Shown here piece after piece: positions 27,263-52,371 of a DNA stretch of 64,000 bases. The position numbers were made by a program, and so were the translations under genes. The stretch comes from Candidatus Hydrogenedentota bacterium (GTDB lineage Bacteria > Hydrogenedentota > Hydrogenedentia > Hydrogenedentales > SLHB01). Within the stretch, counting starts at the first letter, position 1. The number at the start of each line of letters is the position of its first letter. The notes below the pieces were generated by a model. That model searched no databases. It had not been told where the DNA came from and saw only the letters and a list, made by a program, of their open reading frames with translations. The DNA lies in the NCBI GenBank assembly GCA_963668025.2, contig CAXXTH010000019.1, positions 32,001-96,000 of the forward strand. The letters run 5' to 3'.

Positions 27263-28345
27263 ATGACCGAGACAAATACCGATAATCGAACCGTCACCAT
27301 GAACGATGTGGCCAAGCGCGCTGGGGTGAGCCGGGCGACCGTATCCCGCCTGCTCAGCAATGCTCCTTTGCCGATCAGCGTCACCGAGGCCACGCGGCAG
27401 CGGGTATTCAGTGCGGTCAAAGAGCTGGGCTACCGCCCTAACCGGATCGCGCAAAGCTTGATGACCAAGAAGACCTGCATCATGGGATTGTCCATGCCCC
27501 AGTTTTTCCCGCCGAACATCAAGGACCGGCGCATGATTTCCATGCAATCGACGAGCGTGGGGGATCTGGTGTGTGGCGTCCAGTCGGTGGCCCAGCCCCG
27601 GGGCTACGACATCCAGTTGTTTATGCGGTATGAGTACGACCGTGGCGACGGCCCGCCCCATGGCGCGGACACCTTGGATTTCGTGGAAGGGGTGGTCTAT
27701 TGCACGCCTAATCCGCGTTATGATCGGTATTCCCACATTCTCGACGCCAACGTGCCGCTGGTCATGGTGGGCCCCAACCCGACCGAGCTGCCCATCACGT
27801 CTGTATGCGTCGACAATGTGCAGACGCTCTACCGTTTGACGAATGCCTTGATCGCTAAAGGATACCGCCGGATCGGGCTGATCCTTCCGGAAGATAGCGA
27901 CACGATTCTCAGCCGGTTGCGGTATCAGGGGTATCGGAAAGCGCATCTGGAGGCGGAAGTGCCGATTTATCCCCACCTGGTGGTGCCCGGCCATTTTGTC
28001 GGTGATGCGGGGGCGGTTCTAGCGGACGCCGTGCTGGATGGCGGCGTGAAGCCGGAGGCGATCATCGTGGGCCGCTCGGATATCGCCGGAGATGTATTGG
28101 GGCGCATCAAAGAACGCGGCCTGAGGTGCCCGGAAGACATCGCGCTGGTGGTCTATGGAAATGATCATTTATTCGATTTTACGGAGCCGCGAATTACGGC
28201 GGTTGAAATAGGCCGTTTCGAAATGGCGGCGGCGGCGGCCCGGCTGTTGATCGAGGAAATTGACGGCGACGCGGAGCCGGGGCGTGAAGAGTTTATCGAG
28301 CCACATTTGGTGCGGCGCGAGTCGTGCCTGCTGGACGCATTCTAA
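27263..28345 (+). CDS. LacI-family transcriptional regulator
   Basis: VTMNDVAKRAGVSRATVSRLL...LGYRPN, a sugar-binding domain, and C-terminal LVRRES. Confidence 0.95.
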   Translation: MTETNTDNRTVTMNDVAKRAGVSRATVSRLLSNAPLPISVTEATRQRVFSAVKELGYRPNRIAQSLMTKKTCIMGLSMPQFFPPNIKDRRMISMQSTSVGDLVCGVQSVAQPRGYDIQLFMRYEYDRGDGPPHGADTLDFVEGVVYCTPNPRYDRYSHILDANVPLVMVGPNPTELPITSVCVDNVQTLYRLTNALIAKGYRRIGLILPEDSDTILSRLRYQGYRKAHLEAEVPIYPHLVVPGHFVGDAGAVLADAVLDGGVKPEAIIVGRSDIAGDVLGRIKERGLRCPEDIALVVYGNDHLFDFTEPRITAVEIGRFEMAAAAARLLIEEIDGDAEPGREEFIEPHLVRRESCLLDAF

Positions 28346-28413
28346 GGAGGCATGTGTTTTTATTATTCACATTAATTGGGCGGTTGAATCTACACAAGTA
28401 GGAGGATGGTTTT

Positions 28414-29523
28414 ATGACGTACAAAAAGAAAGGTGGTTTTACATTAATCGAGCTGCTGGTGGTGATCACCATCATAGCGATTCTGGCCGCTATTTTGCTG
28501 CCTGCGCTGGCGCGGGCGCGCGAGGCGGCGCGGCGGGCATCCTGTTCGAGCAATCTCAAACAATGGGGCATCATCTGCAAGATGTATGCGGGCGAGAACA
28601 ACGGCCTGTTCCCCGGCGGCGGAGGTTACAAGATCGCAGGCTGGTGTACATGGCGGGGAGTGAACAGCGCCGAGTTATATCCGGATTATTGGAACGATCC
28701 GAATATTATGATTTGCCCGTCCGATGCGCGGGCAGGCATGCCTGGTTTCGTGAGCGTATGGGGGCTGGGCAGCGACTGGCCCATGATCGAGGAAGATGTC
28801 ATCGAACAGCTCAATAGCTTGAAGGATGGCGTGGATGCGGATGCGGCCAAGGCGGTTCGTCATTCTATTCTTTCCTTCCCAATTTCGTATGTCTATGTGC
28901 CATATGCCGTAAAGAACTCCAGCCAGTTGTTCCATGTATTTCATGTGCTGTCGGCGAATGCCGCCTGGGGCGAAGACTGGAATGCCAGTATAAAAGAGCA
29001 AGTTTGGCAGCCTAAGATCAAAGATGCGGGCGGCCCGGATAGTTGGAACTGCACGATCTATTTTTACAAGAACGGTGAAGTGGACATTCCATCATCTTTA
29101 GCCACATCGCACTGGATCTGGCGATATCCTAACACTACCGCCAAGGCGGGAATCGATGATGATGGCAATCCCATGCCGAGCTCTTATAGCCGCCTTAAGG
29201 AAGGGGTCGAGCGGTTCTTCATCACGGACATCAACAATCCCGCTTCTGGCGGCACGGGCCAGAGCACGCTCGTTACCATGTATGACGCCTGGGCCAGGGA
29301 GGACAATGCGAATGCGGCGACATACGGGAAGGGCGCGGTCATGTTGTTCAATCATCTTCCAGGAGGTTCGAACGTTCTCTACATGGATGGGCATGTCGAG
29401 TTCAAGCGGTATTCGAAGGGTGCGGGCATTCCATTTGATTCGCCTGAAAAAGGAGCGACAGGCCAGGCGTGCGTCGGTTCTCAATTTAGCCAATGGTCGG
29501 GTGAATATGGCGGTATTGGGTGA
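28414..29523 (+). CDS. Prepilin N-terminal cleavage/methylation protein, DUF1559 / H-X9-DG type
   Basis: KKKGG|[33 protein letters not shown], and C-terminal [16 protein letters not shown]. Confidence 0.93.
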
Positions 29524-29617
29524 GAACGGGCGGCGCGCATGTGTGCGCCGGCTCCGGTTTCCTATCCAGTTCCACCATCCGTGGGTCTAACAGGAGAGAA
29601 CAATGAGGAGAAGAACG

Positions 29618-31096
29618 ATGAGAATCAGTAATGTACACAGGGGAATGGGCCTTCTCTGTGCGGCAGCCGCGATGGGGATATGCCTTCCACTTGCCGCGTC
29701 CGCGGCAACACTCGAAGTGACGCATTCGCCGGGAGCAGAGCAATATGACAGTGTGAATGCGGCGCTAGCGGTGGCGACGGATAACGATGTTATCGAAATC
29801 ATCGACAACAGCGCGGCGTTTGTCGAGGCGGTGGTGGTTGACGGAACCACGTTGTCCAAGAACAACCTGACACTACGCGGCCAAGCGGGCCTTGATCCGA
29901 AGCCTGTTATTCAAGGCCCTTCTTCCCCAGAGTCAACGACATGGGATCTCGGCATGACGATGGTGTTTTCCTATGGCGGGGCCAATGTCGATAATCTGCA
30001 AGTAGCCAATATTCGTTTCGAGGCGAACGGCGCGGGCACATGTGTGGACGCCCGCTTCTGGAACGGGGCCACCTTCGATAATTGCGAACTGATCGGCGGC
30101 GTATTCAATTCGGTCCGCAGCCAGGTAGCCTCTACTTTGAATAACTGTTACCTCGAAGGCGGATACAACATCGTCGAGCATTTTTTTGGCGGGCCGCTCG
30201 CATTGAACAACTGCACGGTGCGCGGCGGATCCAGCGGCGCAATGCTCTTGCATAGCGGCACGCTCAATGTGGATAGCTGCTATATCGCGGGCGAAGCGGG
30301 CTGCGCCATCAACTGCGATAACAACGCGGACTGGGGTGATGTGTATTTGAACCTGTCCAACAGCGTCATCACCGATTTTTCGAGCAGCGCAAATAATCTG
30401 ATCCCGATTCAAGCGTCGCATAACAACCCATTCCATATGACCATCGACAATTGCGATCTTATCGGTGGCGAGGGCGATGCCAGCAACACCAATACTGGCG
30501 CGGCGATTATTTTCATGCGGGATTTCGATTCCGTAACGATTACGGACACCATCTTTTTTAATATTTCCAGTGTGGCTTACGCTGTCGTTGACAACCATGT
30601 CGGCACACTAAACGAAGACTACAATTTCTACAGCAAAGCCCCGAATAATCTGGCGGACCAGGGCTTCGCCATGGGCGCGCACTCGGTGGACGACCGCGAT
30701 GGCGCCAATCCCTTGTATGTCGATCCGCTGAACCTAGATTTCCGCCTGCTGGCCACTTCGCCTGCCGCGACATTGAATAGCACGGGCACGCCAGGGTTTG
30801 CAGGTTCGCAAGGCGTGGAAGAGGTGGTTGATACGGACGGCGATGGCCTCGCGGACTCCGTCGAGACGGATACGGGCGTGTATGTGAGCGTGTCCGATAC
30901 GGGCACGGACCCGAATGACGCGGACTCCGATGATGATACTTACAACGATGGGGCGGAAGTGGCTGCTGGCACGGACCCGAATGATCCACTGTCATATCCA
31001 GGCGGCGGAGAGGGATTGCCTGTGGCAGGCTTGCTGGGACTATCCGTATTAGCGGGCGTGATGGCAGCGGCGGCTGCACGGCGAATCCGGAGCTAA
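29618..31096 (+). CDS. Secreted right-handed beta-helix protein with Ca-binding DxDxDG repeats and C-terminal sorting anchor
   Basis: Signal peptide, Asn/Cys-ladder repeats, DFRLLATSPA, DTDGDGLAD...GTDPND, and terminal LPVAGLLGLSVLAGVMAAAAARRIRS. Confidence 0.75.
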   Translation: MRISNVHRGMGLLCAAAAMGICLPLAASAATLEVTHSPGAEQYDSVNAALAVATDNDVIEIIDNSAAFVEAVVVDGTTLSKNNLTLRGQAGLDPKPVIQGPSSPESTTWDLGMTMVFSYGGANVDNLQVANIRFEANGAGTCVDARFWNGATFDNCELIGGVFNSVRSQVASTLNNCYLEGGYNIVEHFFGGPLALNNCTVRGGSSGAMLLHSGTLNVDSCYIAGEAGCAINCDNNADWGDVYLNLSNSVITDFSSSANNLIPIQASHNNPFHMTIDNCDLIGGEGDASNTNTGAAIIFMRDFDSVTITDTIFFNISSVAYAVVDNHVGTLNEDYNFYSKAPNNLADQGFAMGAHSVDDRDGANPLYVDPLNLDFRLLATSPAATLNSTGTPGFAGSQGVEEVVDTDGDGLADSVETDTGVYVSVSDTGTDPNDADSDDDTYNDGAEVAAGTDPNDPLSYPGGGEGLPVAGLLGLSVLAGVMAAAAARRIRS

Positions 31097-31148
31097 ACGG
31101 AACGGCATTAGCCAAGTTAACTGCACAAAAATCACGTTAGCATCCATC

Positions 31149-31183
31149 GAGGGCCGCCGGCTGGCCGGCTGGCGGCCCTCTTC
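31149..31183 (+). terminator. GC-rich hairpin after the pilin/partner pair (weak terminator or mRNA stabiliser)
   Basis: GAGGGCCGCC-N12-GGCGGCCCTC with only a short T-tract. Confidence 0.6.
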
Positions 31184-31379: not shown

Positions 31380-33386
31380 GTGAAATGTGTGTTGTTCAAG
31401 CCCGAGAAGCGATTCGCCTCGCTCGCATCACTCCCATTATATGGACTTATTCTACTGTGCATGATGTGTTGCACGGCGGGCCACGCGCAACGCTGGGATT
31501 TTGAATCTGGCCTGGACGGGTGGGAAGGCTTTGGCACGGTGGCTTCGGCTGAGGCGGTGGATGGGGCCATGCAAATCACTTATCCGGCGTCCCAGTTGTC
31601 CGGCGCGCCGGGGGCCGTGCGTTCGGGCATTAGTTTTAACAGCGCGGATTATCGTTACTTAGCGCTGGACATCGAGATTCGCAATGCGCCTACGACCGCG
31701 CCCGTCACGTGCCTGGTTTGGTGGATGCAGACGGCGGGCGGCACGAATGGCGGCGTGGGGGCGCGCACGTTCCAGGTTAAGCCTATCGCGGGGCGGCAGC
31801 CAGTGTTGCTCGATATGCTTGCTTCCGGCGATCTATTCGATGCATGGGCGGGGCAGATCATCCAGCTTCGAATTGAAACACCCTGGGAATATGACGCTTC
31901 GAACATGGGGGATGCGTGGAAAGACGCCGTCACGTGCGTGGACCGCATCGAGCTCTCCACGACGCCGGGCATACCAGAGTATCCGGCGGATTCGGAGTGG
32001 GGAGCGCTCGATGCTGCATATGACCCGATGCAGTGGCCAGGCGGGCGTTTTAATGACCGGCGCAGTCTGTACGAGATCGACGAATCGCGCAATGTCCTTT
32101 CTGGCTTTGGAAACATGTACCACCCCAAAGTGCTGCAAACGAATGATCCAAATTATCCGTACAAGATGTGGTTTTTCGGTTGGGCGGCGGCGGATTGCAA
32201 TCCGGGGTATAGCGGGTGCGACGCCATTTTTCATGCGCGTTCGGCGGATATGGATAATTGGGAAGTCTATAGCGGCTCGAATACGTGGGACAGCACGATG
32301 GATCCCTCCAAATGGGTTCCTGTGATCGCAGCCGACGAGAAGCCGTATGATGAGTGGCACAATGGCGATCCTTCCGTTGTGTACCATGACGGCTTGTATT
32401 ACATGGCGTATTCAGCCACGGGCCGCAACAATGATGGCTATATCTATTGCGTGATGGGCGCTACTTCGGCGGATGGCATTTATTGGCAGCGCACCAGCGC
32501 GCCGCTTCTGGTTTATGGTCCAGAAATTTCCGGGGGCGCGTCCGAAAGCGATGCAACCCGCTGGGGCATGTTCCACCGCCCTTCATTGATGCTTGAAAAC
32601 GGCTATTGGCGCTTATGGTTTGATTACTGGCTTGCGGCCGATGGCGGCGTGTCCATGGGGTATGCGGAAACGCCGGAAGCCCAATTCACGGAAGGCAAAT
32701 TCCAGGTGCTTTTCGCAGGCGATAATCCGCTGCTCAAGCAATGGCCTAATCCATCCGTGGTAAAAGCGGGCTGCAAATATTACAGTTTTTCGGACGCCAC
32801 TGGGTATGGCAGCGGCTGGCCCAGCCGCCAAATCGTCGAGGCGGAATCGGATGATGGGCTTAACTGGACCATCACTGGCTACATTCCTCCTGATTCCGAT
32901 AGCCCTGCGGACCAAGTGCCAGAAGCTACGGTGATCACGGAAAACGGCTATACCTGGCTGGTGGTGTTTTATGCCTGCCAGATTGGCGGCGACCCATACG
33001 ACTGGCGCTATAACCGCATCCGCTATATGAAGCGGATGGTGGATGATTGCTCCGCGGATGGGCGCAGCTTCCGTCCTGGCGATGTGGCGAGTTTGTGCGT
33101 GCCAGGGCCAGTGGCGGCGGACAGCACCTATACGTGGACGAAAGACGGCGAGGAACTAGCGGCGGAACGTTTCGTGGGAGCGGATTCCCGCACTTTGCAG
33201 ATTAACCCGGTTGGCCTTTCGGATGCTGGAACGTACCGGTGTGAATACCTAGACGAAAATAATGAACCTGCCCTATTCGAACTGACCATCTACGTCGCGT
33301 ATGCGGCTCCATTGGCCGCTTTGCCCGGTTTGGCGGTGATGCTGTGCGTATTGATGTATGCGGGCGCTACCCGCATCAAGAATTAG
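31380..33386 (+). CDS. Anchored five-bladed beta-propeller glycoside hydrolase-like protein with N-terminal CBM-like and C-terminal Ig-like domains
   Basis: Signal peptide, WDFESGLDGW, WHNGDPSVV, repeated Asp-box-like SxDGxxW, YTWTKDG...DAGTYRC, and terminal APLAALPGLAVMLCVLMYAGATRIKN. RBS AAGGAGGT with GTG start. Confidence 0.7.
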   Translation: MKCVLFKPEKRFASLASLPLYGLILLCMMCCTAGHAQRWDFESGLDGWEGFGTVASAEAVDGAMQITYPASQLSGAPGAVRSGISFNSADYRYLALDIEIRNAPTTAPVTCLVWWMQTAGGTNGGVGARTFQVKPIAGRQPVLLDMLASGDLFDAWAGQIIQLRIETPWEYDASNMGDAWKDAVTCVDRIELSTTPGIPEYPADSEWGALDAAYDPMQWPGGRFNDRRSLYEIDESRNVLSGFGNMYHPKVLQTNDPNYPYKMWFFGWAAADCNPGYSGCDAIFHARSADMDNWEVYSGSNTWDSTMDPSKWVPVIAADEKPYDEWHNGDPSVVYHDGLYYMAYSATGRNNDGYIYCVMGATSADGIYWQRTSAPLLVYGPEISGGASESDATRWGMFHRPSLMLENGYWRLWFDYWLAADGGVSMGYAETPEAQFTEGKFQVLFAGDNPLLKQWPNPSVVKAGCKYYSFSDATGYGSGWPSRQIVEAESDDGLNWTITGYIPPDSDSPADQVPEATVITENGYTWLVVFYACQIGGDPYDWRYNRIRYMKRMVDDCSADGRSFRPGDVASLCVPGPVAADSTYTWTKDGEELAAERFVGADSRTLQINPVGLSDAGTYRCEYLDENNEPALFELTIYVAYAAPLAALPGLAVMLCVLMYAGATRIKN

Positions 33387-33422
33387 GATTCATTGGGAAA
33401 TTCATTTGAAAGGAGATTACCC

Positions 33423-34550
33423 ATGCGTTTGGGATGTATTACGTTTCTCATCTCTTTAGCAGCCTTTTACACGGGCGCGTCGGACGAACTGCGGCCCATC
33501 CAAAGCAACAATGCTTGGGAGCGCATCGAGAAACCGCTGATCTGGAATTTTGATAACATGTACCAGCCGTGTGTACGCGAGTTTCCCGGCGAGGAATATC
33601 CGTACAAGATGTGGTTCTTCGGCTGGTCGGCGGAGAGCACCAATCCGAAATTTCCGGGTTGTGACGCCATCTATCTGGCCCGCTCCAAGAATCTGGCGGA
33701 TTGGGAGATTTATTCCGACGGCGGGAGCTGGGACGCCAACATGGATCCTAAGCTATGGATGCCCGTGATTTATGCGGACAATAAATACTACGATGAATGG
33801 CACAATGGCGATCCTTCAGTGGTGTATAAAGACGGGCGCTATTATATGGCGTTCAGCTCGACGAGCAAGCCATTTACGGAGGAAATCAAGGGCCATCCCA
33901 ATAAAATGATGCTATGCGTGATGGGCGCGGAGTCGGATGATGGCATCCATTGGACCAAAACAGAGCAGCCGCTGCTGATTGAGCCGGTGGAAGCACAGAA
34001 ACCGGAATCGGATGAAGGATGGCTTGGCGATTTTCATCGTCCGAGCCTGATGTGGGAGCAGGGTAAATGGCGGCTTTGGTTTGATTATTGGCATCCCACC
34101 AAAGGCTTATGCATGGGGTATGCGGAAAACGCGGGGGATTTCGCCGCCAAAGGCGGATTCAAAATTGTAAGCGATTTGCAGAAACCGCTCATCGAGAATT
34201 GGCCAAATCCGGAAGTGGTTAAGGCCGGGGGGCGGTATTACGCGTTCGCCGACCCGTCCGGGTATCCACCTAAAAACAATGATGCGAATGCCGGATGGAC
34301 CAGCCGCGCTTTATGTGAGGCGGTTTCAAAAGACGGCCTTACGTGGGACATTATAGGATTCATCGCGCCGGATCCCGACTCCGCGGCATGCCATGTGCCG
34401 CAGGCGCTGGCCACCACGAAGGAAGGCAAGCCTTGGCTGTATTTGTTTTATGCGACGCAGCGGGGCGGCATGAATAAGGATGGCATATTTGATTACCGGT
34501 ATGATCGGATCAAAATGATGCGGCAGCCGCTCCCAAAAGATGGTGAATGA
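33423..34550 (+). CDS. Soluble secreted paralog of the beta-propeller glycosidase domain
   Basis: Shares YPYKMWFFGW, DEWHNGDPSVV, FHRPSLM and WRLWFDYW with 31380-33386. Has a signal peptide. Confidence 0.7.
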   Translation: MRLGCITFLISLAAFYTGASDELRPIQSNNAWERIEKPLIWNFDNMYQPCVREFPGEEYPYKMWFFGWSAESTNPKFPGCDAIYLARSKNLADWEIYSDGGSWDANMDPKLWMPVIYADNKYYDEWHNGDPSVVYKDGRYYMAFSSTSKPFTEEIKGHPNKMMLCVMGAESDDGIHWTKTEQPLLIEPVEAQKPESDEGWLGDFHRPSLMWEQGKWRLWFDYWHPTKGLCMGYAENAGDFAAKGGFKIVSDLQKPLIENWPNPEVVKAGGRYYAFADPSGYPPKNNDANAGWTSRALCEAVSKDGLTWDIIGFIAPDPDSAACHVPQALATTKEGKPWLYLFYATQRGGMNKDGIFDYRYDRIKMMRQPLPKDGE

Positions 34551-34586
34551 TGTTCCTTATCGTAAAGAGCCATGGAGAGGTAATGC

Positions 34587-35573
34587 ATGAGTAAGGCGAA
34601 CGGCATGACATCTCGCGAGCGAGTGGAGCGTGCGATACGATTCGAGAAGCCGGACCGTGTTCCGTTCAATTTTTGGATGGACCGTCGGCGCATGGCGGAA
34701 TTGGACGCCAAATATGGGAGTGATTTTCGAATTGGCCACTACGGCGCGGATGTGATTGAGAGTTACCATTGCTATCCCGCGTTCCCGTCGGGCGAACATC
34801 GGGAACAAAACGGCACGTGGTGGATGACCAGGGAATTGTTCGAGGATTGGCGTGAAGCCAAAGATATCCCTATGCCGGATCCATATGATCCCGTTTTGTA
34901 TGAACACCTGGATGCCGACCTCAAGAACAATCCAGAATGTGCGATCATCGTGAATTCACCCAATGTGCTGACCACGGTGGAAATGATGCGCCGGCAGGAA
35001 AACTTTTATATGGATATGCTCATGTATCCGGAAGAAGTGAAGGCGTTTCTTGGGCGCATCGCGGGCGTGATGGCGGCGGTGGCGGAGCAGGTGTGCCAGC
35101 GTGACATTACGGCGCTCTATGTGCAGGATGACGTGGCATATAATGGCGGCCTCCTCGTCTCGATGGAGCTGCTCCGCGACCTGATCCTGCCATGCTGGAA
35201 AAAGGTCATTGATGTGGGGCATGCCCATGGCAAGCCTGTATTCTTTCACACCGATGGCAAGGTCGACAGCATATGGAGCGTGTTCGCGGATGAATTGGGC
35301 GTGCGCATGCTGAACCCGCTGCAACCCGGCCTGCAAGATCTGCGGGCGTTCAAGGAGCAGTATCAGGGGCGGATGGGCGTCTATGGCGGCCTGGATACCG
35401 GCACGATTCATCTCATGACGCCCGAGGAGATACGGCGGCATGTGTTTGATTTGTTTGATAAGGCGCGCGCGGATGGGGGGCTGATTATATCGTCGCATGA
35501 TATTGATTACGCGGCTACGGAAGAACAGTTGGACGCATTGGTGCAAGCAATTAAAGCATGTACGTATGCGTAA
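34587..35573 (+). CDS. Uroporphyrinogen decarboxylase-family protein
   Basis: MTSRERVERAIRFEKPDRVP, QDDVAY, HTDG, NPLQP, GGLIISSH. Confidence 0.85.
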   Translation: MSKANGMTSRERVERAIRFEKPDRVPFNFWMDRRRMAELDAKYGSDFRIGHYGADVIESYHCYPAFPSGEHREQNGTWWMTRELFEDWREAKDIPMPDPYDPVLYEHLDADLKNNPECAIIVNSPNVLTTVEMMRRQENFYMDMLMYPEEVKAFLGRIAGVMAAVAEQVCQRDITALYVQDDVAYNGGLLVSMELLRDLILPCWKKVIDVGHAHGKPVFFHTDGKVDSIWSVFADELGVRMLNPLQPGLQDLRAFKEQYQGRMGVYGGLDTGTIHLMTPEEIRRHVFDLFDKARADGGLIISSHDIDYAATEEQLDALVQAIKACTYA

Positions 35574-35600
35574 CGCTCCTTTGATGAAATGGAAGGTTAC

Positions 35601-37445: not shown

Positions 37446-37615
37446 ATCGCCACTCTCACCTGATGGGTGAAAGCGTAAAAAGTGGCACAGGGAATGATTG
37501 CTGAAAAAGAGCGGAATTCTCATGCAAAGGGCTATGTGTTTGATTCGGGGAATTGGACCTTTTGTTTGTGCATTTTCGGCTTTTCTTTATTTATGTACGG
37601 AATGGAGTGAAATGT

Positions 37616-41065: not shown

Positions 41066-41300
41066 AGAACGTGATGGATGGATTAACGCCTAAGCGTACA
41101 TGGGCAAAGGTGGCGGTAATATGCGTGATTCATGAGATTGTTCCTGTCCCACTCCCTGTCCGGCGGTTTCGGAAGAAAAGCTGGCGCTTGTAATGACATA
41201 AAGGCTCATTCTACACTTCCTATACGGGACATGCGCTGCCATTGGGGATAGAGTGTATAATTTGATAGAATCATGGCGGAAGCATTAGGGAGTGTACACG

Positions 41301-43304: not shown

Positions 43305-44291
43305 ATGAGAAGCAAGATGGTGAGTTTGGTATTGGCTTGTGTGTTGGCGGCGGGCGCCGCAAGCGCGGGAACGGTGTATCTCAATTTTGATGACGGTGGC
43401 GCGACGCTGCCGGATGGCATTACTACAGGCACTGGCGGATGGGGCGATCCCGCATATGCGGATGGCGCTCTTGTGCTTAGCGGCGGCGGCCCATACATGA
43501 ACTTCCCTTCAACTTGGATTTCTGGGCAGTCCGTGACGATGGAATTCACGATTCCTGATTTGCTGGCGGGTATTCCAGCCGAACGTGGCGGCACGGGTTG
43601 GCAGGAAGGCACCTTTAATGCTGGATGGAAAGCCGGCGGCACGTTGTGCAAAATGGGCGGTGGCATCCTCGGTGGACCTAACGGCTCTTATAATGGGATC
43701 ACTACAACCCATTTAGGTATGGTGGATTGGTCCAATACTTACGCTGGTAATGATTTCGACATTGAAGGCGCTTGCGCGCTGACCACAGGCTTCCGTGTAA
43801 CCATCAAGGTTGTAGTGGATGCTGATGCCGATACATGGACCACATATTATGCATATGGTGACAACGCGACCACCCCAACCCAGCGCGCCACCAACTGGAC
43901 GCTGCTTTATCAATTTACGGCTGTCGATTTGACGGGTGATGACTTGAGTTGGGGCATCCAGTCCTGGGGCGCGTTGCTTCGTGTGGATGATGTGATCATC
44001 GAAGGCGATGCAGTGCCTAATTTCGGAACGGCTCCCGGCTTCGGCCAAGTCACGGTTACGGATCTGTCAGGCATGACGGAAGAAGCCGCTGTCGCCGCCG
44101 CTACTGACGCCGGTTTGACCATCGGCAACATCACTTATGAACACAGCGACACCGTGCCTTCTGGCCAGCTCATTTCGCAGAGCCTTGATGCGGGTTCGAG
44201 CGTTGATTCCGGTTCGACCATTGACCTCGTGATTTCACTCGGCTCCGCGAGCGATGTGCCTGCGCTGTGCGTGCCGTTCTTCCAAGACTAA
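43305..44291 (+). CDS. Secreted beta-sandwich (lectin/ConA-like?) protein with C-terminal PASTA domain
   Basis: Signal peptide ...AASA|GT, PASTA-like VTDLSGMTEEAA...SDTVPSGQLISQS...IDLVISLG, ending VPALCVPFFQD. RBS GGAGG. Confidence 0.75.
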   Translation: MRSKMVSLVLACVLAAGAASAGTVYLNFDDGGATLPDGITTGTGGWGDPAYADGALVLSGGGPYMNFPSTWISGQSVTMEFTIPDLLAGIPAERGGTGWQEGTFNAGWKAGGTLCKMGGGILGGPNGSYNGITTTHLGMVDWSNTYAGNDFDIEGACALTTGFRVTIKVVVDADADTWTTYYAYGDNATTPTQRATNWTLLYQFTAVDLTGDDLSWGIQSWGALLRVDDVIIEGDAVPNFGTAPGFGQVTVTDLSGMTEEAAVAAATDAGLTIGNITYEHSDTVPSGQLISQSLDAGSSVDSGSTIDLVISLGSASDVPALCVPFFQD

Positions 44292-44366
44292 ATGCAGTAT
44301 GCGTGAAGCGGTGATGGCTGTTTGAAGCCTGCACTGTATAGTAAAAAAACCAAAACATGTTGAGAT

Positions 44367-44704: not shown

Positions 44705-45484
44705 TTACAGCCCCGTATTTACAATATGCACATCAATGCCTGCGTCTCGGAATGCATCGAGCATGGGCTGCGGGGCATTTTCATCCGTTACTAGAATGTT
44801 GAATCCATTTACGGGCAGGACGGGGCTGAGCGAACGCACGCCGAATTTACTCGAATCCACGAGCAAAATGCGTGTCTGTGCGCATTTTGCAATGGCCCGC
44901 TTAATGCCCGTCTCGAGGAAATCGATCTCGGCAAGGCCGTCTTCGAGTGTCAATCCCGTTCCGCTTACAAAACATTTATTGGCGCGCATATGGTCGAAGA
45001 AGCCCTCGGCTTGGGGGCCTACGAATGTCATCGTGTTCGCGCGAAGCATGCCTCCGCAACAAAAAACCGTGATACTGCCCAATTGAGCCGAGGCCCGGTT
45101 GACGATGGTGAGGCCATTGGTCAACACCGTGATGCCCGGAGTAGAGAAATGGCGGGACATTTCGGAAACGGTGGTTCCCCCCTCCATGGCGATAATGTCG
45201 CCCTCCTCGATGAATGTCTTCGCCGCATAATGCGCGATGGCGGTCTTTGCGCCATGCTGGAACGTTTCCCTCCGGTCGAATTGCACCGTTGGCGCGATGA
45301 CGTCCTTTTCCCGGATGGCGCCTCCGCGCACCCTCTTTATGCCGCCCTCCTCCTGGAGAAGGTCAAGGTCGCGGCGTACGGTCATTACGGAAGTATTCAG
45401 GCGTTTGCTGCATTCTTCGAGGCGGACACTGCCTTCTTCCATGATCCAATTTAATATCTGCTTTCGGCGATCTTCAGCAAGCAT
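44705..45484 (-). CDS. DeoR/GlpR-family transcriptional regulator
   Basis: RRKQIL...SVMTVRRDLDLL...RVRGGA, GGTT, LTNGL, VDSSKFG. Confidence 0.95.
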   Translation of the reverse strand: MLAEDRRKQILNWIMEEGSVRLEECSKRLNTSVMTVRRDLDLLQEEGGIKRVRGGAIREKDVIAPTVQFDRRETFQHGAKTAIAHYAAKTFIEEGDIIAMEGGTTVSEMSRHFSTPGITVLTNGLTIVNRASAQLGSITVFCCGGMLRANTMTFVGPQAEGFFDHMRANKCFVSGTGLTLEDGLAEIDFLETGIKRAIAKCAQTRILLVDSSKFGVRSLSPVLPVNGFNILVTDENAPQPMLDAFRDAGIDVHIVNTGL

Positions 45485-45531
45485 TCACTTTCCTCACATA
45501 TTCAGTTTTTAGAGTTCCCTATCCTCCTTCT

Positions 45532-45595
45532 ATTCTAGCGGGTTTGGATAGATTTGTCAACTAATGTTAGTTGTAGGTATATTCTGTTAGTTGTA
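45532..45595 (-). promoter_or_regulatory. Promoter of the DeoR gene with overlapping operator-like repeats
   Basis: Minus-strand TTGACA (45560-45555)-N17-TAGAAT (45537-45532). Inverted repeat CAACTAA-TG-TTAGTTG. Direct repeat TGTTAGTTGTA at 45565 and 45585. Confidence 0.75.
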
Positions 45596-45793
45596 AAAAG
45601 GGGTTGCTGAGCTGCATGCGGTATTCAAGTATAGAAGCGAAAGGCACGGCAGGCCCTAGGTTAAAAAGAGAAATGGCCATTTTCGGCTTCATATGCGTAT
45701 CTATATGCGCTGCAATAGGTTAATGAGCGAGAAGATATGTAGCTAGTTTCGAGTAAAAACAATTAACGTAGATGGGATTTCGTGTAAAAAGGC

Positions 45794-45822
45794 TTGACAC
45801 GTGATCGTTCTCGTTGTATAGT
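45794..45822 (+). promoter_or_regulatory. Sigma-70 promoter P2 with variant operator and no downstream CDS
   Basis: TTGACA-CGTGATCGTTCTCG-TTG-TATAGT, 17-bp spacer. Confidence 0.8.
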
Positions 45823-45945
45823 GCTCCATAGTAGCTATACATGGCTGCTAGTGTTTATCAATAACAGTGGGCTAAAGCCAGCTAGAGCTAAACTGGCCAT
45901 ATGGAGCGAGCTTTCTCGTGAATGGGAGCGGTATATTGCTTTTTT
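45823..45945 (+). ncRNA. Candidate small RNA transcribed from P2
   Basis: Orphan promoter, local stems (TAGTAGC/GCTGCTA, GCCAG/CTGGC, GCTCCATA/TATGGAGC) and a terminal T-run. No recognised family. Confidence 0.3.
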
Positions 45946-46118
45946 AAACCACGGGGACACGAGGAAACACGGGGAACGCATACCGTGTCCCATGGCATTC
46001 AGTATTATAGCTGTTAATAGAGCTTACTCAGAGTGTTAAGCCCTGTTTCTTGGGCATTTGTTTCCTGAACGCCCTTCGTTCCCCATTTTTCCCCGTGTCC
46101 CCGTGGTTTAAAAAAAGC
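45938..46118. repeat. Long inverted repeat (MITE/REP-like) with periodic arms
   Basis: GCTTTTTTAAACCACGGGGACACGAGGAAACACGGGGAACG ... CGTTCCCCATTTTTCCCCGTGTCCCCGTGGTTTAAAAAAAGC. Confidence 0.8.
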
Positions 46119-46181
46119 TTCTTGACGTGAGCGTTGCCCATAATCCAATGTAACGACATAACACTGTTTATTCTCGTTTAC

Positions 46182-46292
46182 CTTTGCGTTCTTCGCGGCT
46201 TTGCGTGCGTATAAATCGAGTGTGATTTCTGTTGATAGTACAGCGCGCTAACCTTACTCATCTATTTCACGCAAAGCCGCGAAGCCGCAAAG
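46182..46292. repeat. Inverted repeat with ~9-nt periodic arms
   Basis: CTTTGCGTTCTTCGCGGCTTTGCGTG ... CACGCAAAGCCGCGAAGCCGCAAAG. Confidence 0.75.
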
Positions 46293-46923
46293 AATGCAAC
46301 CGTTAAAAGCGCGACATACCTGCAATAAAAAACTTCGTCACTTTAGCCATCAGGAGCAAAAATAGTGGGCTGATTCCTAAACCGCGAATGGATGCGAATT
46401 CATGGCATACCGCAGCAAACGGGAAAGATGAACAAGATTTTTTATAGCACTTTGGCAACTGAAGCAGGTTTGGCTGGCTTTATAAAGAATCGTTGCGATC
46501 TTGTCCAATCTTGCATCTTGTAAATCATGCCTAAAAAAAAGGCCATTGCTTCAGTCGGCCAAAATATTGCCCTATTTTGTTTGTATTTGCCTAGAGTCAA
46601 ATCTTGCCTTTTTGCTGCAGGGCGGATCATCAATTTTACATATTCTAACAATTTCCCGTGAATGGCCCATATTGTGTTACCTGAGGAAATGTCTTGATAA
46701 ATCAAAGCCCTCATTTTTCCGATATTTTTAAGTGTGCAAAATAGAGCATTCAAAAAATCAGACGTATTTGTCAATTGTGAGGATTTTGGAAGCGCATGAG
46801 GCGTTGGTATGTATACCATTGTTTTATAATATGTTACAGCTTTGTCCGCACCAAAATGCTGGGCGGAAAGCGGAGGACTTCGCAAAAAAAACAGAGCCTA
46901 TCATTTGCGTGCAAAAAAAGATC

Positions 46924-46972
46924 TTGACACGTGATCGATCACGTTATATACTGACATTTGTTAGCGCTAATT
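46924..46972 (+). promoter_or_regulatory. Sigma-70 promoter P3 with a perfect 16-bp operator and a second LacI-type site
   Basis: TTGACA-CGTGATCGATCACG-TTA-TATACT. Palindrome ACGTGATCGATCACGT at 46929-46944. TGTTAGCGCTAA near the predicted start site. Confidence 0.85.
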
Positions 46973-47049
46973 GTTACCTTTCTTTGCGTCGGGGAATTGG
47001 GTAGAGCGGAATTTTGGGAATTCGATGGCCTTTGATGAGGAGGGAATAG

Positions 47050-48141
47050 ATGATGAAGCAGTTTAGGCGGGGATTCACATTGATAGAATTGCTGGTGGTG
47101 ATTGCCATTATCGCGATTTTGGCGGCGATCTTGTTGCCAGCTCTGGCGCGCGCCCGGGAAGCCGCGCGCCGCGCATCGTGCGCCAGCAACCTCAAGCAAT
47201 TTGGCATTATCTTCAAGATGTATGCCAATGAAACCAAGGGGGCCGCTTGGCCCGCGAAGCAGCGGTTTTCGATCAACGGACTCACGACGGCGATGGGATT
47301 TGACTCGTTTGCGTTGTACCCCGATTACTGGTCGGACGTGAACATCGCTGTTTGCCCATCCGATTCGAGAACGCCTTTCGAGTACACCTCCGCGAAGGTG
47401 ACCATTGGGGTGGATGAAGACTATGCCGGGCAGGTAGCCGAAGTGGCCGCTCTGGGGGATTCCTCCAGGCCTTGCCTCGGGGCATTGCTCAGCATGCCCG
47501 TATCGTATTGCTACACGCCCTATGCCCTAGAAACCGCGTCGCAAATTGTCGCCACGACGCATATTTTCTTGTCTTGGACCTGGTTCAAACCGCTAGACAC
47601 CTATGGAAATGTGGAATCCCCCGGTTTTTGGAATGCCAAAACGACGGAAGCCATGGGGTGCCCCGCGGACTGGATCATTGTCGCTTGGGACAACCAAGGG
47701 CGCGATGACCTGGGTTCGGATATGACGGTGCCAGAAGCCAAGGGCGGCCATGGCATGCCCGCCGTGTATGTGGATGACGATGGAAGCCCGCTCCCTTCGC
47801 AGTATCACCGGTTGCGCGAAGGAGTCGAACGTTTCTTTATTACGGACATCAACAATCCCGCGTCGTCCAGCGCGGGGCAGAGTTCTCTGTTTGTCATGTG
47901 GGATGCCTTCTGTGGCGGCGGCACGGGCTACGACGGCACCGGAAATTTCTTCCAAGGCGCGGGCGATGTGCCTATTGGACGGTTTAATCATGTGCCAGGC
48001 GGTTCCAACGTGCTGTATATGGACGGCCACGTGGAGTATGTCCGGTTCAATTCCAAAGTGCCTATCTTCACGAATGGATACAAACCCTCCGGCGCTTGCC
48101 GCGATGCGAACTTGTATCCCTTTATGGGCGGGTGGGGCTGA
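47050..48141 (+). CDS. Prepilin N-terminal cleavage/methylation protein, DUF1559 / H-X9-DG type
   Basis: RRG|[67 protein letters not shown]. Confidence 0.93.
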
Positions 48142-48420: not shown

Positions 48421-49408
48421 ATGAAGATGAAAAGCTTAACACTGTTATTGTCATGTTTGTTGCTGGCCGGCGCCGCAAGTGCGGGGACAGCATATATGAA
48501 TTTTGACGATGGCGGCGTGACACTGCCTGATGGCGTCACCACGGGATATGAAGGCTGGGGCAATGTGACCTGGACCGATGGCCATCTATTGCTCGATGGC
48601 GGCGGCCCGTATATTTTCTTTCCAAATGCCTGGATCTCGGGACAATCGCTTACGATGGAGTTCACCATACCCGACTTAATGGTCCTCATTCCTGCCGAAC
48701 GCGGCGGCACGGGGTGGCAAGGAACTACCTTTAACGCAGGTTGGAAATTCGTGCAGGACACGTTCTGCCTGATGGGTGGCGGCATCCTCGGCGGAGCAGA
48801 TGGCACGTATAATGGGATTACGACCACCCATCTGGGCATGGTGGACTGTGGCAACGCATATGCGGGCAGCGATTTTGATATTGAATCCGCATGCGCACAG
48901 GCCAGCGGATTCCGTGTCACCATCAAAATCGTCGTTGACGCCACCGCCCAGACGTGGAGCGCCTATTATGCGTATGGGGACGACGCCACCACGCCCCACT
49001 AAGCGCGCCTCGAATTGGACGCTCCTGTATACCTTCTCGAGTGCCGTTTTGGATCATCCCGTACAATGGGGCATTCAAGCCGCAGGCTGCCATCTGCGGG
49101 TCGATGATGTGATCATTGAAGGCGATGCGGTGCCTGATTTTGGCACGGCTCCCGGCTTCGGCCAAGTCACGGTTACGGATCTGTCTGGCATGACGGAAGC
49201 AGCCGCTGTCGCCGCCGCCACTGACGCCGGTTTGGCCGTCGGCAGCATTACCTATGAACACAGCGACACCGTGCCTTCCGGCCAACTCATTTCGCAGAGC
49301 CTTGAGGCGGGTTCGAGTGTCGATTCTGGTTCGACCATTGGCCTCGTGATCTCGCTTGGCTCCGCGAGCAACGTTCCCGCGCTGAGTGTGCCCTTCTTTC
49401 GCGGGTAA
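48421..49408 (+). pseudogene. Paralog of the 43305 PASTA protein, split by a +1 frameshift (real or sequencing error)
   Basis: Deleting one C from CCCC at 48994-48997 gives TPTKRASNW (paralog: TPTQRATNW) and a 328-aa product, the same length as the paralog. Confidence 0.8.
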
Positions 49409-49449
49409 GGAGTAATTCTTTTCGTGTAAAAAGCTGAAAAGTCCGTTAC

Positions 49450-49505
49450 CATCTTGGAAGAGACGGTGTGTAACCCGCTTCACCGCCTCTTCCAGATGCT
49501 TTTTT
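49450..49505 (+). terminator. Intrinsic terminator after the second pilin/partner pair
   Basis: CATCTTGGAAGAGACGGTG...CACCGCCTCTTCCAGATG-CTTTTTT. Confidence 0.75.
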
Positions 49506-49545
49506 GAATATAAAGCCAACTTGAACCTAAAGAGGATGAAGCCTC

Positions 49546-52371
49546 ATGATGGGAAGCATCACACCGGTACTCGCAGGAGTTCTATTTGCAGCCATGGGAG
49601 AAGCCATGCCGCCAGCGGATGTGGGCGTATTTCATACTCCCCAACAAACGTGTTTGCTTCTAGATTCCGTGCCTAAGTCCCATTTCCGTTTTTCGGGGAC
49701 CATGGGCGCGTACATTGACGCATCTATCCGTGAATGGATCAAGCGCGCGCCGGAAGCTAATCCTGGCATCTTGGAACAGCTTCGCCGCCGGGAGAGCAAT
49801 CCGCCCCGCCCTTACCTGGTGGATTGGGCGGGCGAATTTGCGGGGAAATATCTGATCTCCGCCGTACAAGCCCTTCGCATGTCGGATGACCCCGAGCTGC
49901 GCGAGTATGTCCAGCAATTTGTAAATGAATACATCGCCACGCAAGCCCCCGATGGGTATCTGGGCCCCTGGCCCAAAAATGCAGCGGGCGAGCACCTCAT
50001 GACGATTGATGCGTGGGAGCTGTGGGCCCAGAACCTGGGTATCATGGGCCTGCTGATGTGGCATGAAGAATCCGGCGACCAGGCAGCGTATGACAGCGCC
50101 ATACGCGCTGCGGATGTGGTTTGCGATGTTTTTCTCGATGGCGGCCACCGCCCCCTGGAATTGCATTGTTCCGTCATGAACTTATCCATTATCCAGTCTT
50201 TTGGCTGGCTCTACCGCTTAACGGGGAATGAACGCTTTTTGCGGTTCATGCATGTCATCGAAGAAGAATGGGCTGTTTCCGCGGATTTCTTCCGCGAAGG
50301 CTTGGCGGGCACGCCCATGTATTTGCTGCCTGATATGGGCTGCCGCTGGGAGAGCCTTGTCGATTTGCAAGGCCTTACCGAACTGTACCGCATTACTGGC
50401 GACAGTGACTACAAACAGGCGTTTGTAAACCTCTGGTCTTCGATTCGCCAATACGACCGGCATCCGTCGGGTGCGTTCTCGACTCATGAGTGCGCCATTG
50501 GTGATCCGTATGACCAAGTGGGCGGCATTGAAACCTGTTGCACCGTGGCTTGGACCGCCATGACAGCCGACATGCTTCGCCTTACGGCGGATTCCAGCGC
50601 GGCGGATGAACTCGAACTCTCGACCTGGAACCAAGCGCTGGCTTCGCTCCATCCATCTGGAAGCTGGTGTACCTATCATACCCCGTTAAATGGACATCGG
50701 GATCCTTCCTTCCAGAGCATTGCGTTCCAGGCGCGCCCAGGAACGCCAGAAATCAATTGCTGTTCGGTGAATGGATTCCGCGCCTTGGGTGTTTTGACGG
50801 AATGGGCGGTGATGCAGGCCAATGACGGGCTGGTGGTGAACTTCTATGGCCCATCGGAAGCCAGTGTCCGTTTGAAGGACGGCGCACCTGTTATCTTGAC
50901 GCAAGATACTGATTACCCCATCGGCGGCAAGGTGCGCCTTCGCATGGGCCTCCAGCATGCTTCCGAGTTTTCGTTGCGGCTGCGTATCCCCGCCTGGTCG
51001 GCTAATACCCAAGTGCGGTGGGATAAGGAGTCCGCGACACCGAAAGCAGGCGAGTATTATGTGATCACGAGAAAATGGCGGGATGGAGACTCCGTGGACC
51101 TCGAATTCGACATGTCTCCGCGCTATTGGGCAGGCGAGCTCTCGTGCAAGGATTCCGCGGCTCTGTACCGGGGTCCAATATTGCTGGCCGCTGACGCCCA
51201 TTACAACACGACTCCATTGGATGCGTTGCCTGCGGTGGACCTTAAAAACCTTGAGTTTAGGCCAGTACCTGTGGAGCCCGGAAAACGCCCTGCAAGTTTC
51301 CCTCCGATGGGGCTTTGGGATGTGCAGACGCCAAATGGAACGCTCCGCCTGTGTGACTTCGCTTCAGCGGGCGTTTTGGGAACAGACTATAAAGCATGGC
51401 TGGCTGCCGGGAACGCCGGACCGCCTCCCGTGTGGCTCGCACGGCCGGTCGCGGATGCTGTGATTGCCGCCGGGCCGGTGTTGTTCCAATGGACAGCCTA
51501 TTTGCGCAAAAGCGAAGAAGAGCGTTCCTTTACCTTGCGCATCGCACGCGATGCGGAGTTCACGGATATAGTCCAAGAGATTAATGACATACGCGACAGG
51601 CGGTTTGTGCTCCAGCCAGGGCTCACCGAAGCGGGGCCATACTATTGGGAAATCATTTCCCACAATTCGAATGGCGGCCGTAAAAATGAGCTTGGCCCCA
51701 GCTTGTTCCATGTGGACTCGTCTCTTGAAAATACCGTGTTAGCGGATACTACCCCGCCTCCATTAGGAGAGGGCCAAACGCTGGTGGCGTCGAAACTCGA
51801 TGGGAACGGCGCGCCGTGGTTTGGCAAGCTGCTCGAAGAAAAGAAGGTCGAGCCTGCCGCAGACCGCTTTGGCCATATGAACAGCGCTGTTCAATTGAAT
51901 GGACTGGACAGCGGTATTTATTACGAGGCACCATGCTATTCCGAAGAGGATCTCTCGGTTTGCGCATGGATCTGTCCCGATGCCTTGGACAATACACGGA
52001 CGGTTTTCTCTGCATGGCATAGCGCCGGCATGTTCAATCCGCTATGCATTTTCATACGCGACGGCAATCTCTTTGCCCGAACGGAAACTGTCGGCCTCTT
52101 GGACACAAACGGCGTTCCCGTGGAGAAAGGCAAGTGGATTCATGCCGCAGCGGTAAAAGAGGGCGAGGTGCTGTCCTTGTACATCAATGGCAAGCTGGCT
52201 GCATCACGGCCGGTGCGCAAGTTCATTAATGCGTATCAGAAGAAAGTCGCCATTGGGGCAAACCCCAATGCGCCAGGGGAAAACTTTGCGGGGCGTATCG
52301 ATAATTTCCAGTTTCTGGCCCGGGCGCTGGCTCCTGCTGAAGTCGAGGCATTAGCAGCGGAGAAACCCTAA
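49546..52371 (+). CDS. GH127/GH146-like beta-L-arabinofuranosidase with C-terminal LamG/ConA domain
   Basis: GEFAGKY, DGYLG, ETCCTVAW, NCCSVN, RIPAWS, YRGPILLA, and C-terminal WIHAAAV...LYING...FAGRID. Confidence 0.85.
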   Translation: MMGSITPVLAGVLFAAMGEAMPPADVGVFHTPQQTCLLLDSVPKSHFRFSGTMGAYIDASIREWIKRAPEANPGILEQLRRRESNPPRPYLVDWAGEFAGKYLISAVQALRMSDDPELREYVQQFVNEYIATQAPDGYLGPWPKNAAGEHLMTIDAWELWAQNLGIMGLLMWHEESGDQAAYDSAIRAADVVCDVFLDGGHRPLELHCSVMNLSIIQSFGWLYRLTGNERFLRFMHVIEEEWAVSADFFREGLAGTPMYLLPDMGCRWESLVDLQGLTELYRITGDSDYKQAFVNLWSSIRQYDRHPSGAFSTHECAIGDPYDQVGGIETCCTVAWTAMTADMLRLTADSSAADELELSTWNQALASLHPSGSWCTYHTPLNGHRDPSFQSIAFQARPGTPEINCCSVNGFRALGVLTEWAVMQANDGLVVNFYGPSEASVRLKDGAPVILTQDTDYPIGGKVRLRMGLQHASEFSLRLRIPAWSANTQVRWDKESATPKAGEYYVITRKWRDGDSVDLEFDMSPRYWAGELSCKDSAALYRGPILLAADAHYNTTPLDALPAVDLKNLEFRPVPVEPGKRPASFPPMGLWDVQTPNGTLRLCDFASAGVLGTDYKAWLAAGNAGPPPVWLARPVADAVIAAGPVLFQWTAYLRKSEEERSFTLRIARDAEFTDIVQEINDIRDRRFVLQPGLTEAGPYYWEIISHNSNGGRKNELGPSLFHVDSSLENTVLADTTPPPLGEGQTLVASKLDGNGAPWFGKLLEEKKVEPAADRFGHMNSAVQLNGLDSGIYYEAPCYSEEDLSVCAWICPDALDNTRTVFSAWHSAGMFNPLCIFIRDGNLFARTETVGLLDTNGVPVEKGKWIHAAAVKEGEVLSLYINGKLAASRPVRKFINAYQKKVAIGANPNAPGENFAGRIDNFQFLARALAPAEVEALAAEKP

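Follow-up and report, generated by a model that had tools for sequence, protein, structure and literature searches.

A 64,000-nucleotide stretch of the genome of a Candidatus Hydrogenedentota bacterium (contig CAXXTH010000019.1, positions 32,001 to 96,000; hereafter the window, from whose first base coordinates are counted unless a contig or locus is named) carries two carbohydrate loci, A and B, each headed by a gene for a prepilin-type protein of the DUF1559 / H-X9-DG family. Our analysis indicates that this pilin family is probably tied to envelope-level glycan acquisition. The arrangement in which a sugar-type regulator is followed by a pilin gene, a gene for an exported or sorted protein, a hairpin, and genes for glycosidases or an ATP-binding cassette (ABC) importer recurs genome-wide beyond chance. 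The two window loci, which an initial annotation made from the DNA letters alone had described as a repeated architecture, are ordinary members of a genome-wide design of 50 loci.

The genome (6.15 Mb, 93.75% complete) gave 4424 genes with a simple codon-score caller. A jackhmmer search for the pilin family returned 83 hits, and the 66 at E<1e-60 were taken as full members; these 66 DUF1559-type pilin genes lie in 50 loci, and the count agrees with 66 PF07596 matches and 69 profile matches. Their neighbours were scanned with Pfam (47 first co-directional downstream genes, 76 of 80 second or third genes and 48 of 50 upstream genes), while the six neighbours outside that scan are window genes and were scanned separately with Pfam. 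The control consisted of 40 randomly drawn anchors, all further than 10 genes from a family member, each represented by the next three genes on either strand (120 genes), and only Pfam hits at E<=1e-7 entered the neighbour counts. A co-directional downstream gene is present at 47 of the 50 pilin loci. A glycosidase, a sulfatase, or a solute-binding protein (SBP) or permease is encoded within the same-strand positions +1 to +3 in 23 of the 47 chains, as compared with 5 of 40 random anchors (Fisher p 2.5e-4). At the first downstream position, PASTA-domain proteins account for 8 chains and beta-helix/TSP3 proteins for 5, with 0/120 among the control genes; including two further beta-helix/TSP3 first genes at weaker E-values, the window partner A among them, the tally is 15/47 against 0/40 (Fisher p 2.9e-5). 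Upstream, sugar-type regulators occur at 14 of the 50 loci (10 LacI/GntR-PBP, 3 AraC and 1 DeoR) and in 0/120 control genes (p 8e-9). Neighbourhood statistics of this kind had been proposed in the initial annotation as a check, and they reveal a clear excess of sugar genes, regulators and tail proteins over the controls.

The pilins themselves are readily placed in the family. The initial annotation had placed a prepilin/DUF1559 gene at the head of both loci, and for pilin A (28414-29523, plus strand) and pilin B (47050-48141, plus strand) the scores exceed the cut-offs of PF07596 (40.3 and 27.8 bits, respectively; cut-off 23.3), TIGR04294 (24.3 and 23.4 bits; cut-off 19) and the N_methyl leader model (36.6 and 36.9 bits), with TIGR02532 and PF07963 both above cut-off. 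In an alignment of 60 paralogues, which are 40–57% identical to pilin A, all 60 have a class III leader, namely a short basic leader with G at –1, F at +1 and E at +5. The same alignment bears out the conserved ends and divergent middle that had been noticed in the two window proteins: the region from G8 to about Q50 is invariant, as are the C-terminal segments E266–A277 and H314–V328 (H..DGHV), whereas the middle is variable. The PF07596 match to the window pilins spans only the first 27–48 profile positions. The spacing between histidine and DG is X10 in pilin A and nearly all copies, strict X9 being found in 4 of the 83 hits, and the TIGR04294 model still matches despite this variant spacing.

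The predicted structure of pilin A (pLDDT 84.7, pTM 0.85) contains a helix at residues 11–61 and a C-terminal sheet. Among its 25 best fold matches (VIA), 21 are pilins or pseudopilins, with weak scores throughout (Z <= 4.0); the best are PilA4 (6xxd), EpsG (4lw9) and PulG (5wda). The DUF1559 pilins can therefore be modelled, with weak matches, as a pilin-type core carrying a variable insert of ~200 residues. By sequence, the match of the pilin to solved structures is confined to the N-terminal helix, the nearest named model of the N-terminus is the major pseudopilin GspG at a score below cut-off, and the canonical short pseudopilins and the PilA-like pilin of the genome diverge from the family past about residue 20. 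A periplasmic-binding-protein fold, hinted at by the Pfam name SBP_bac_10, was not seen in the model or in the fold searches.

The uptake route common in Bacteroidota appears to be missing from this cell. The window contains no TonB-dependent receptor, as the initial annotation had observed, and this extends to the whole genome at its 93.75% completeness: searches for the TonB-dependent receptor (PF00593), Plug (PF07715) and SusD (PF07980) gave 0 matches each, with a positive Bacteroides control. Receptors elsewhere in the genome, which had been considered as an explanation of uptake that would overturn the pilin idea, were thus not found, nor was SusD. Among the 31 genomes of the order (this one counted), 22 have no TonB receptor match and the remainder have at most 4. 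By comparison, DUF1559 / H-X9-DG proteins form very large paralogue families, with 66 copies here and 10–97 copies in each of the 30 relatives searched. The assembly genes required by type IV pili (T4P) or type II secretion systems (T2SS) are present, including 1 prepilin peptidase (Peptidase_A24), 6 platform genes (T2SSF), 7 secretins and 16 T2SSE ATPases above cut-off (7 long, ~9 of PilT-like length). Between the two loci lies the orphan GspF/PilC-family platform gene of the initial annotation (41292-42506, plus strand; T2SSF 1e-64), with no ATPase gene adjoining; its product scores below the equivalog cut-offs of GspF (391 bits, cut-off 424) and PilC (400 and 385 bits, cut-off 700). A full secretion cluster nevertheless lies just past the window (C19:98800-110033), comprising an ATPase, a platform protein, two short pseudopilins and a secretin. 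As a separate observation, a DUF1559 gene adjoins a T2SSE-family ATPase gene in two genomes (L027:5172-6710 in G000 and L204:3705-4868 in G021); the ATPase in G021 is of PilT-like length, and such direct links of the family to pilus motors are rare.

The proteins encoded beside the pilins are frequently marked by a distinctive C-terminus. A search for a C-terminal hydrophobic helix followed by a basic end retrieved 114 of the 4424 proteins, 61 of which share the motif [LV]P[VA]A[GS]. Genes for 20 of these 61 immediately adjoin a pilin gene, as compared with 106 of 4358 genes overall (odds ratio 24, p 2e-18), and 25 of the 50 pilin loci have a tail-bearing gene at most 3 genes away. The head domains vary, and the common parts are a TSP3 or PASTA spacer plus the tail; L016:9009-9938 and L004:7414-8538 are examples besides partner A. 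The partners do not make up one family; judged by sequence, they appear to be tail-anchored surface proteins whose heads differ. NCBIfam sorting models gave zero matches to the [LV]P[VA]A[GS] tails, and the 5 PF07589 PEP-CTERM matches in the genome are all in other genes. We regard the tail on these 61 proteins as an undescribed class of sorting signal that deserves its own model. Sortase searches gave 0 matches in the genome, and no rhombosortase scores above cut-off, only a generic rhomboid falling below it. The single exosortase gene (C10:1329333-1330106; PF09721 207.5 bits, TIGR02602 161.6 with a cut-off of 105.6), which scores under every named Xrt subtype cut-off, is a candidate for the processing enzyme of these tails.

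In this regard, the two window loci differ. The initial annotation had given each pilin a secreted neighbour with a sorting-like C-terminus. Partner A has both the signal peptide and the full tail (window 31040-31096): its translation ends ...GLPVAGLLGLSVLAGVMAAAAARRIRS, in which the motif is followed by a hydrophobic membrane helix and the basic cluster RRIRS. Partner B ends ...VPALSVPFFRG, with neither membrane helix nor basic tail, and the two proteins have no domain in common; A is a beta-helix protein with a tail and B a PASTA protein without one, so they are unrelated.

Both loci contain a strong hairpin downstream of the partner gene, as had been predicted, and both hairpins are real by a shuffle test. 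Hairpin A (31149-31180, plus strand) has a 14-bp GC-rich stem, starts 52 nt past the partner A stop codon and lacks a T tract; it folds at -32 kcal/mol (z -4.06), a value that 0 of 200 shuffles attain. Hairpin B (~49450-49498, plus strand), followed by a T run, folds at -25.7 kcal/mol (z -5.21; again 0 of 200 shuffles). We extended the comparison to the genome with the 14 partner genes whose co-directional gap is 60 nt or longer, scoring for each the most stable 60-nt hairpin within the 150 nt that follow the gene; one partner, with a 26-nt gap, was excluded. The median is -31 kcal/mol, as compared with -18.7 in 300 control gaps (Mann-Whitney p 3e-6), and 7 of the 14 lie past the control 10th percentile, although many control gaps are shorter than the partner gaps, a difference that biases the comparison slightly toward stronger partner hairpins. 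Directly downstream of the pilin genes themselves, the excess is marginal (p 0.054). Codon adaptation was rejected as a proxy for expression, as ribosomal-operon genes (0.707) are close to the genome median (0.703) and the index is hence uninformative.

How the pilins could serve glycan acquisition can be outlined from these gene contents. We tentatively favour, while holding it somewhat short of probable, the capture or import of glycan by an inducible mixed pseudopilus built of operon-specific pilins. In such a scheme, a sugar-type regulator would control an operon whose first gene encodes a private DUF1559 / H-X9-DG pilin-like member. The one prepilin peptidase would process the subunits, and one of the shared T2SS/T4P-type machines would then take them up, such that the variable domains on display in the filament or pseudopilus are those induced by the sugars at hand. 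Such domains, together with the tail-anchored surface protein where one is present, would grip the matching polysaccharide and deliver it to the operon's ABC importer and exported enzymes, in a cell that works without the TonB-dependent/SusCD route. The hairpin downstream of the pilin-partner pair would most likely end or attenuate transcription, leaving the pair in excess over the enzymes. At least five pilin chains hold transport or cytoplasmic catabolic genes only (L002, L005, L011, L013 and one of L048), and uptake therefore fits them better than enzyme export. It is these chains of importers and cytoplasmic enzymes, together with the missing TonB route, that make us lean toward capture. 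A more specific proposal is polysaccharide uptake by a retractile pseudopilus of sugar-induced, interchangeable DUF1559 subunits, whose variable domains would bind particular glycans and from which PilT-like ATPases would draw the chains through a secretin into the periplasm, in the manner of DNA uptake by competence pili; this seems to us improbable. Were it true, it would assign a function to the DUF1559 family, which reaches dozens of copies per genome both in this order and among planctomycetes, and it would account for 'selfish' glycan uptake by bacteria other than Bacteroidota.

A number of observations weigh against capture by a sugar-specific pilus. The statistics rest on home-made gene calls and only 40 control anchors. 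The fold matches of pilin A are weak, and its model returned nothing at E<=0.001 in Foldseek. Hairpin A lacks the T tract that hairpin B has. Of the 23 glycosidases and sulfatases beside pilins, 18 look exported (17 by a signal-peptide heuristic and one by eye), which fits an export function equally well. The pattern also fades in relatives. A clear orthologue of partner A turned up in 1 of 40 relatives, and a weaker match in one more. Among 19 regions with a GH127+LamG gene (18 in other genomes and 1 paralogue here; up to 5 kb of upstream sequence each, with less than 2 kb for two of them), a pilin gene is present in the upstream stretch of 1. We also read 20 pilin loci by plain open reading frame (ORF) scans, taking the ten highest entries of the relatives' match list for each of two other genera, and a tail-bearing neighbour was found at 1. 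Nineteen of these loci supplied 23 downstream proteins, picked from 37 ORFs after overlapping or short ones were dropped, and none of the 23 has PASTA or TSP3. Carbohydrate genes (GH2 or SBP-permease) follow the pilin at 4 of the 20, a figure that has no control set and rises to 6 of 20 when NPCBM and BNR are counted. On the pilin tree, furthermore, partner class is only loosely clustered, with 12 changes against a shuffled mean of 16 (3 of 1000 shuffles), and tandem copies inflate even this clustering.

The initial annotation had suggested that pilin plus sorted partner may be the substrate-specific capture module, and as a general pairing this finds no support, being seen at 1 of 20 loci in the two other genera. 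Pilin and sorted partner are not a fixed pair. The link to sugar operons is broad, and the pairing is a habit of this genome and, for locus A, of at least one related genus: in another genus, locus A is syntenic with identities of 61% for pilin A, 50% for partner A and 56% for the downstream 668-aa protein.

The alternative that survives best is an adaptor role in export, which we consider possible but rather doubtful. The operon pilins would be T2SS-like pseudopilins whose variable domain recognises the operon's own exported proteins and helps them cross the outer membrane. The strongest association in the genome is indeed with exported tail-bearing proteins (20/61 adjoining, odds ratio 24), the signal-peptide-like N-termini of 18 of 23 neighbouring glycosidases and sulfatases are as expected for such a role, and complete secretion-type clusters with secretins are present. 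In addition, the pilin N-terminus is nearest to GspG, although below cut-off. A surface-retained T2SS cargo with a tripartite C-terminal tail is reported in VesB of Vibrio cholerae, with GlyGly-CTERM and rhombosortase (PMC6219818 and PMC13393428). The tight tie to exported tail proteins, taken with this precedent, leans toward export. Against an export role, at least five pilin-led chains hold importers and cytoplasmic enzymes only, the relatives of the GH127 gene mostly lack an adjoining pilin, and the genome has neither a sortase nor a rhombosortase above cut-off. Known T2SSs, moreover, move many cargoes with a single pseudopilus. A complex prediction of pilin A (residues 30–369) with partner A (35–440), run with no controls, scored 0.00 against a mark of 0.32 and speaks neither for nor against binding.

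We consider it unlikely that the pilins are membrane-tethered periplasmic helpers, never polymerised, in which the helix would anchor a variable domain that binds oligosaccharides or chaperones the importer or enzymes. The Pfam domain name SBP_bac_10 points this way, as do the Tuwongella immobilis proteins with both domains, which go with membrane fractions in the relevant part of PMC8567305, and the placement, in three genera (L035, L197 and L205), of pilin genes directly ahead of genes for an SBP or an SBP-permease fusion. The model, by contrast, looks like a pilin fold and not a periplasmic-binding-protein fold, and a helix invariant to residue 50 over 60 paralogues would exceed the needs of a plain anchor. 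The fused SBP-plus-permease genes (~1140–1160 aa) directly downstream of a DUF1559 gene in these three genera are an observation in their own right (L035:6287-9709, L197:1394-4873 and L205:1479-4931). Finally, the view that there is no specific tie, expanding paralogues having landed at the heads of inducible operons in a genome so rich in sugar loci that adjacency follows from their number, is very unlikely: the individual pairings are evolutionarily labile, and glycosidases abound away from pilins too (5 of 40 random anchors have one nearby), but the excess over matched random anchors is large, gene position and strand hardly vary (a co-directional downstream gene at 47 of 50 loci), and locus A is syntenic across genera.

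Our comparison with known systems places the capture reading between several precedents. Both window pilins belong to the DUF1559 / H-X9-DG family (PF07596, TIGR04294) by their above-cut-off scores, N_methyl leader and 66-copy expansion. In the sections of PMC10632474 and PMC8567305 that deal with it, the family belongs to Planctomycetes and is of unknown function, whereas here it occurs in Hydrogenedentota, with X10 spacing, heading sugar operons. The former source describes it, in the same section, as the largest paralogue group of Planctopirus limnophila, with 68 paralogues, and the latter reports, where it treats Tuwongella, that the DUF1559 proteins fractionate with membranes and that their genes are often flanked by signal-peptide genes. 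With type IV pilins and T2SS major pseudopilins (PilA, GspG/EpsG/PulG), the window pilins share the class III leader G|F...E5 and, going by the predicted structure and its weak fold matches, probably the 50-residue N-terminal helix and the C-terminal sheet. They differ in their length of ~360 aa, the ~200-aa variable insert, dozens of operon-specific copies and scores under the family cut-offs of GspG and PilA. The polysaccharide utilization loci of Bacteroidota (SusC/SusD) are likewise sugar-regulated, with surface components ahead of glycosidases and one private set per locus, but TonB receptor, Plug and SusD matches are absent from this genome and the uptake genes are ABC importers, so the analogy is one of position only.

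The idea of a type IV-like filament that grips polysaccharide has been put forward in the Planctomycetes–Verrucomicrobia–Chlamydiae (PVC) group, as far as the relevant passages of PMC13174399 and PMC5394234 go: a type IV-like pilus locus of Akkermansiaceae is proposed for glycan attachment in the former, and planctomycete fibres bind dextran in the latter. Compared by that description only, Akkermansiaceae MUL2 is a single conserved locus that contains PilM and a pilin of archaeal type, as opposed to a private pilin per operon here, and the subunits of the dextran-binding fibres are not identified in that account. The present host lies outside the PVC group; the initial annotation had linked the family with PVC-type bacteria, and the organism is a Candidatus Hydrogenedentota. 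Partner A and the 60 other tail proteins resemble the GlyGly-CTERM/rhombosortase and PEP-CTERM/exosortase systems in ending with a motif, a helix and basic residues, and in the presence of one exosortase. They differ in the motif [LV]P[VA]A[GS], in matching no NCBIfam sorting model, and in the lack of a rhombosortase above cut-off.

We found no paper describing the regulator-pilin-glycosidase plan, and the DUF1559 name is rare in the papers searched. Term searches of the accessible text gave no mention of pili, TonB or PEP-CTERM in a Hydrogenedentota genome paper (PMC10866078) and no mention of pilins in a CAZyme survey of Planctomycetota (PMC11131199). New here are the phylum Hydrogenedentota, the matched-control statistics, the link to the tail motif, the pattern of hairpins and the finding that TonB-dependent receptors are lacking genome-wide. 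The tie to sugar operons, in a phylum with few or no TonB receptors, makes the DUF1559 family a testable part of glycan acquisition and a candidate answer to how bacteria outside Bacteroidota bring large glycans across the outer membrane.

Locus A opens with a LacI-family sugar regulator (27248-28345, plus strand; Pfam LacI 4.6e-18, Peripla_BP_3 2.6e-30), directly upstream of pilin A on the same strand as had been foreseen. Partner A (29603-31096, plus strand; 497 aa) consists of a signal peptide, a right-handed beta-helix, a TSP3 repeat (TSP3_bac 25.3 bits) and the C-terminal tail, with a DUF5123 match below cut-off. Its sequence has zero matches among solved structures and none in NCBIfam at E<=0.01. 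The predicted structure (pLDDT 70.3) is a right-handed beta-helix, which Foldseek places nearest to a PL6 alginate lyase (7dmk, E 5e-5); next come a pectin methylesterase, a fucoidan lyase, pectate lyase Pel9A and phage tailspikes. Given this resemblance of the model to polysaccharide lyases and tailspikes, partner A is predicted to be a glycan-active or glycan-binding surface protein.

Downstream of hairpin A, the initial annotation had recognised a pair of propeller glycosidases and a GH78 enzyme. The GH78-like protein stands: it shows the alpha-L-rhamnosidase six-hairpin domain (35589-37343, plus strand; Bac_rhamnosid6H 1e-16, Bac_rhamnosid_C 3e-5) and has no signal peptide. The propeller pair is reduced to sub-threshold GH130/GH43-like matches. 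Its first member, an exported protein of 668 aa (31380-33386, plus strand), shows weak similarity of GH43/GH130 type (NF052550 1.7e-4, 9fj8 1.1e-3, 4qqs 0.01), contains an Ig domain (Ig_3 3.4e-6) and ends in a hydrophobic stretch with basic residues. The second is a 385-aa paralogue of its core with a signal-peptide-like N-terminus (33393-34550, plus strand), which has no Pfam match and nothing meaningful among solved structures by sequence, and is 44% identical over 346 aa to a stretch of L171 to which the 668-aa protein also aligns. The URO-D gene and the ABC importer were both found in Pfam as annotated. The former encodes a URO-D / MtaA-CmuA-like protein without a signal peptide (34587-35573, plus strand; PF01208 3.6e-20, NCBIfam matches below cut-off), and the latter comprises a solute-binding protein and two permeases (37553-41065, plus strand; SBP_bac_1 2e-23, BPD_transp_1 4.4e-10 and 2.4e-16). 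URO-D / MtaA-CmuA-like genes without a signal peptide recur in sugar loci, at 11547-12563 and 52917-53993 in the window besides the copy in locus A, and beside other pilin loci (L007:2806-3843, L015:1732-2649, L047:10468-10932 and L072:3250-4212). Their role may be to process methylated sugars or to transfer methyl groups.

At locus B, the expected sugar-type regulator is a DeoR-family protein encoded divergently on the minus strand (44705-45484; DeoRC 2.9e-37, HTH_DeoR 1.2e-15), 1.56 kb upstream of pilin B. The intervening stretch (45485-47049) has a lower GC content of ~0.49, no convincing ORF and no Rfam match, and an Rfam scan of the long gaps in both loci revealed no RNA family. Partner B (48421-49408, plus strand; PASTA 8.8e-15) is a secreted PASTA-domain protein whose gene is frameshifted into two ORFs, 48421-49002 and 48776-49408. 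DNA alignment with its intact paralogue locates a single extra base at 48994. This base is absent from contigs of two other studies (runs X3 and X5, 95–99% alike), and the partner B gene is therefore intact in close strains. In the two best-matching runs (X1 and X2), the contigs have a gap across 48946-49155, which includes the frameshift site of the source strain.

The intact paralogue itself (43305-44291, plus strand; PASTA 1.1e-15) aligns with partner B at the DNA level, has a signal peptide and ends ...DVPALCVPFFQD, without a membrane helix or basic cluster. Two further paralogues lie elsewhere in the genome, and none of the three has an adjoining pilin. The head domain of partner B has homologues only in this genome (a search with residues 20–245 of the PASTA protein returned its four copies alone), a search of genome contigs found no related loci for the PASTA protein, and only DUF6645 or hypothetical clusters match it in the ESM Atlas. 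Beyond hairpin B, the GH127-like glycosidase of the initial annotation is present (49546-52371, plus strand), with a signal-peptide-like N-terminus and a C-terminal LamG domain (GH127 catalytic 4e-37, middle domain 3.7e-20, Laminin_G_3 1.6e-18); it also shows a partial match to aceric acid hydrolase below cut-off. Two tRNA genes close the locus (52524-52726, plus strand; Rfam RF00005, 69.6 and 59.4 bits).

Upstream of both loci, the window carries genes for LpxC-FabZ, LpxD, OmpH and OEP, and the cell is therefore diderm, as had been deduced from its lipopolysaccharide genes. LpxC and FabZ are fused in one protein of 447 aa (19884-21227), and the fusion is kept at 60–80% identity in many Hydrogenedentota assemblies. 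A patch of mobile elements lies on the 5' side of the sugar loci, composed of a group II intron (4943-6266; Rfam D1-D4 122 and 52.7 bits, RVT_1), followed by a DDE transposase (6315-7406) and an IS1634-like transposase (9936-11531).

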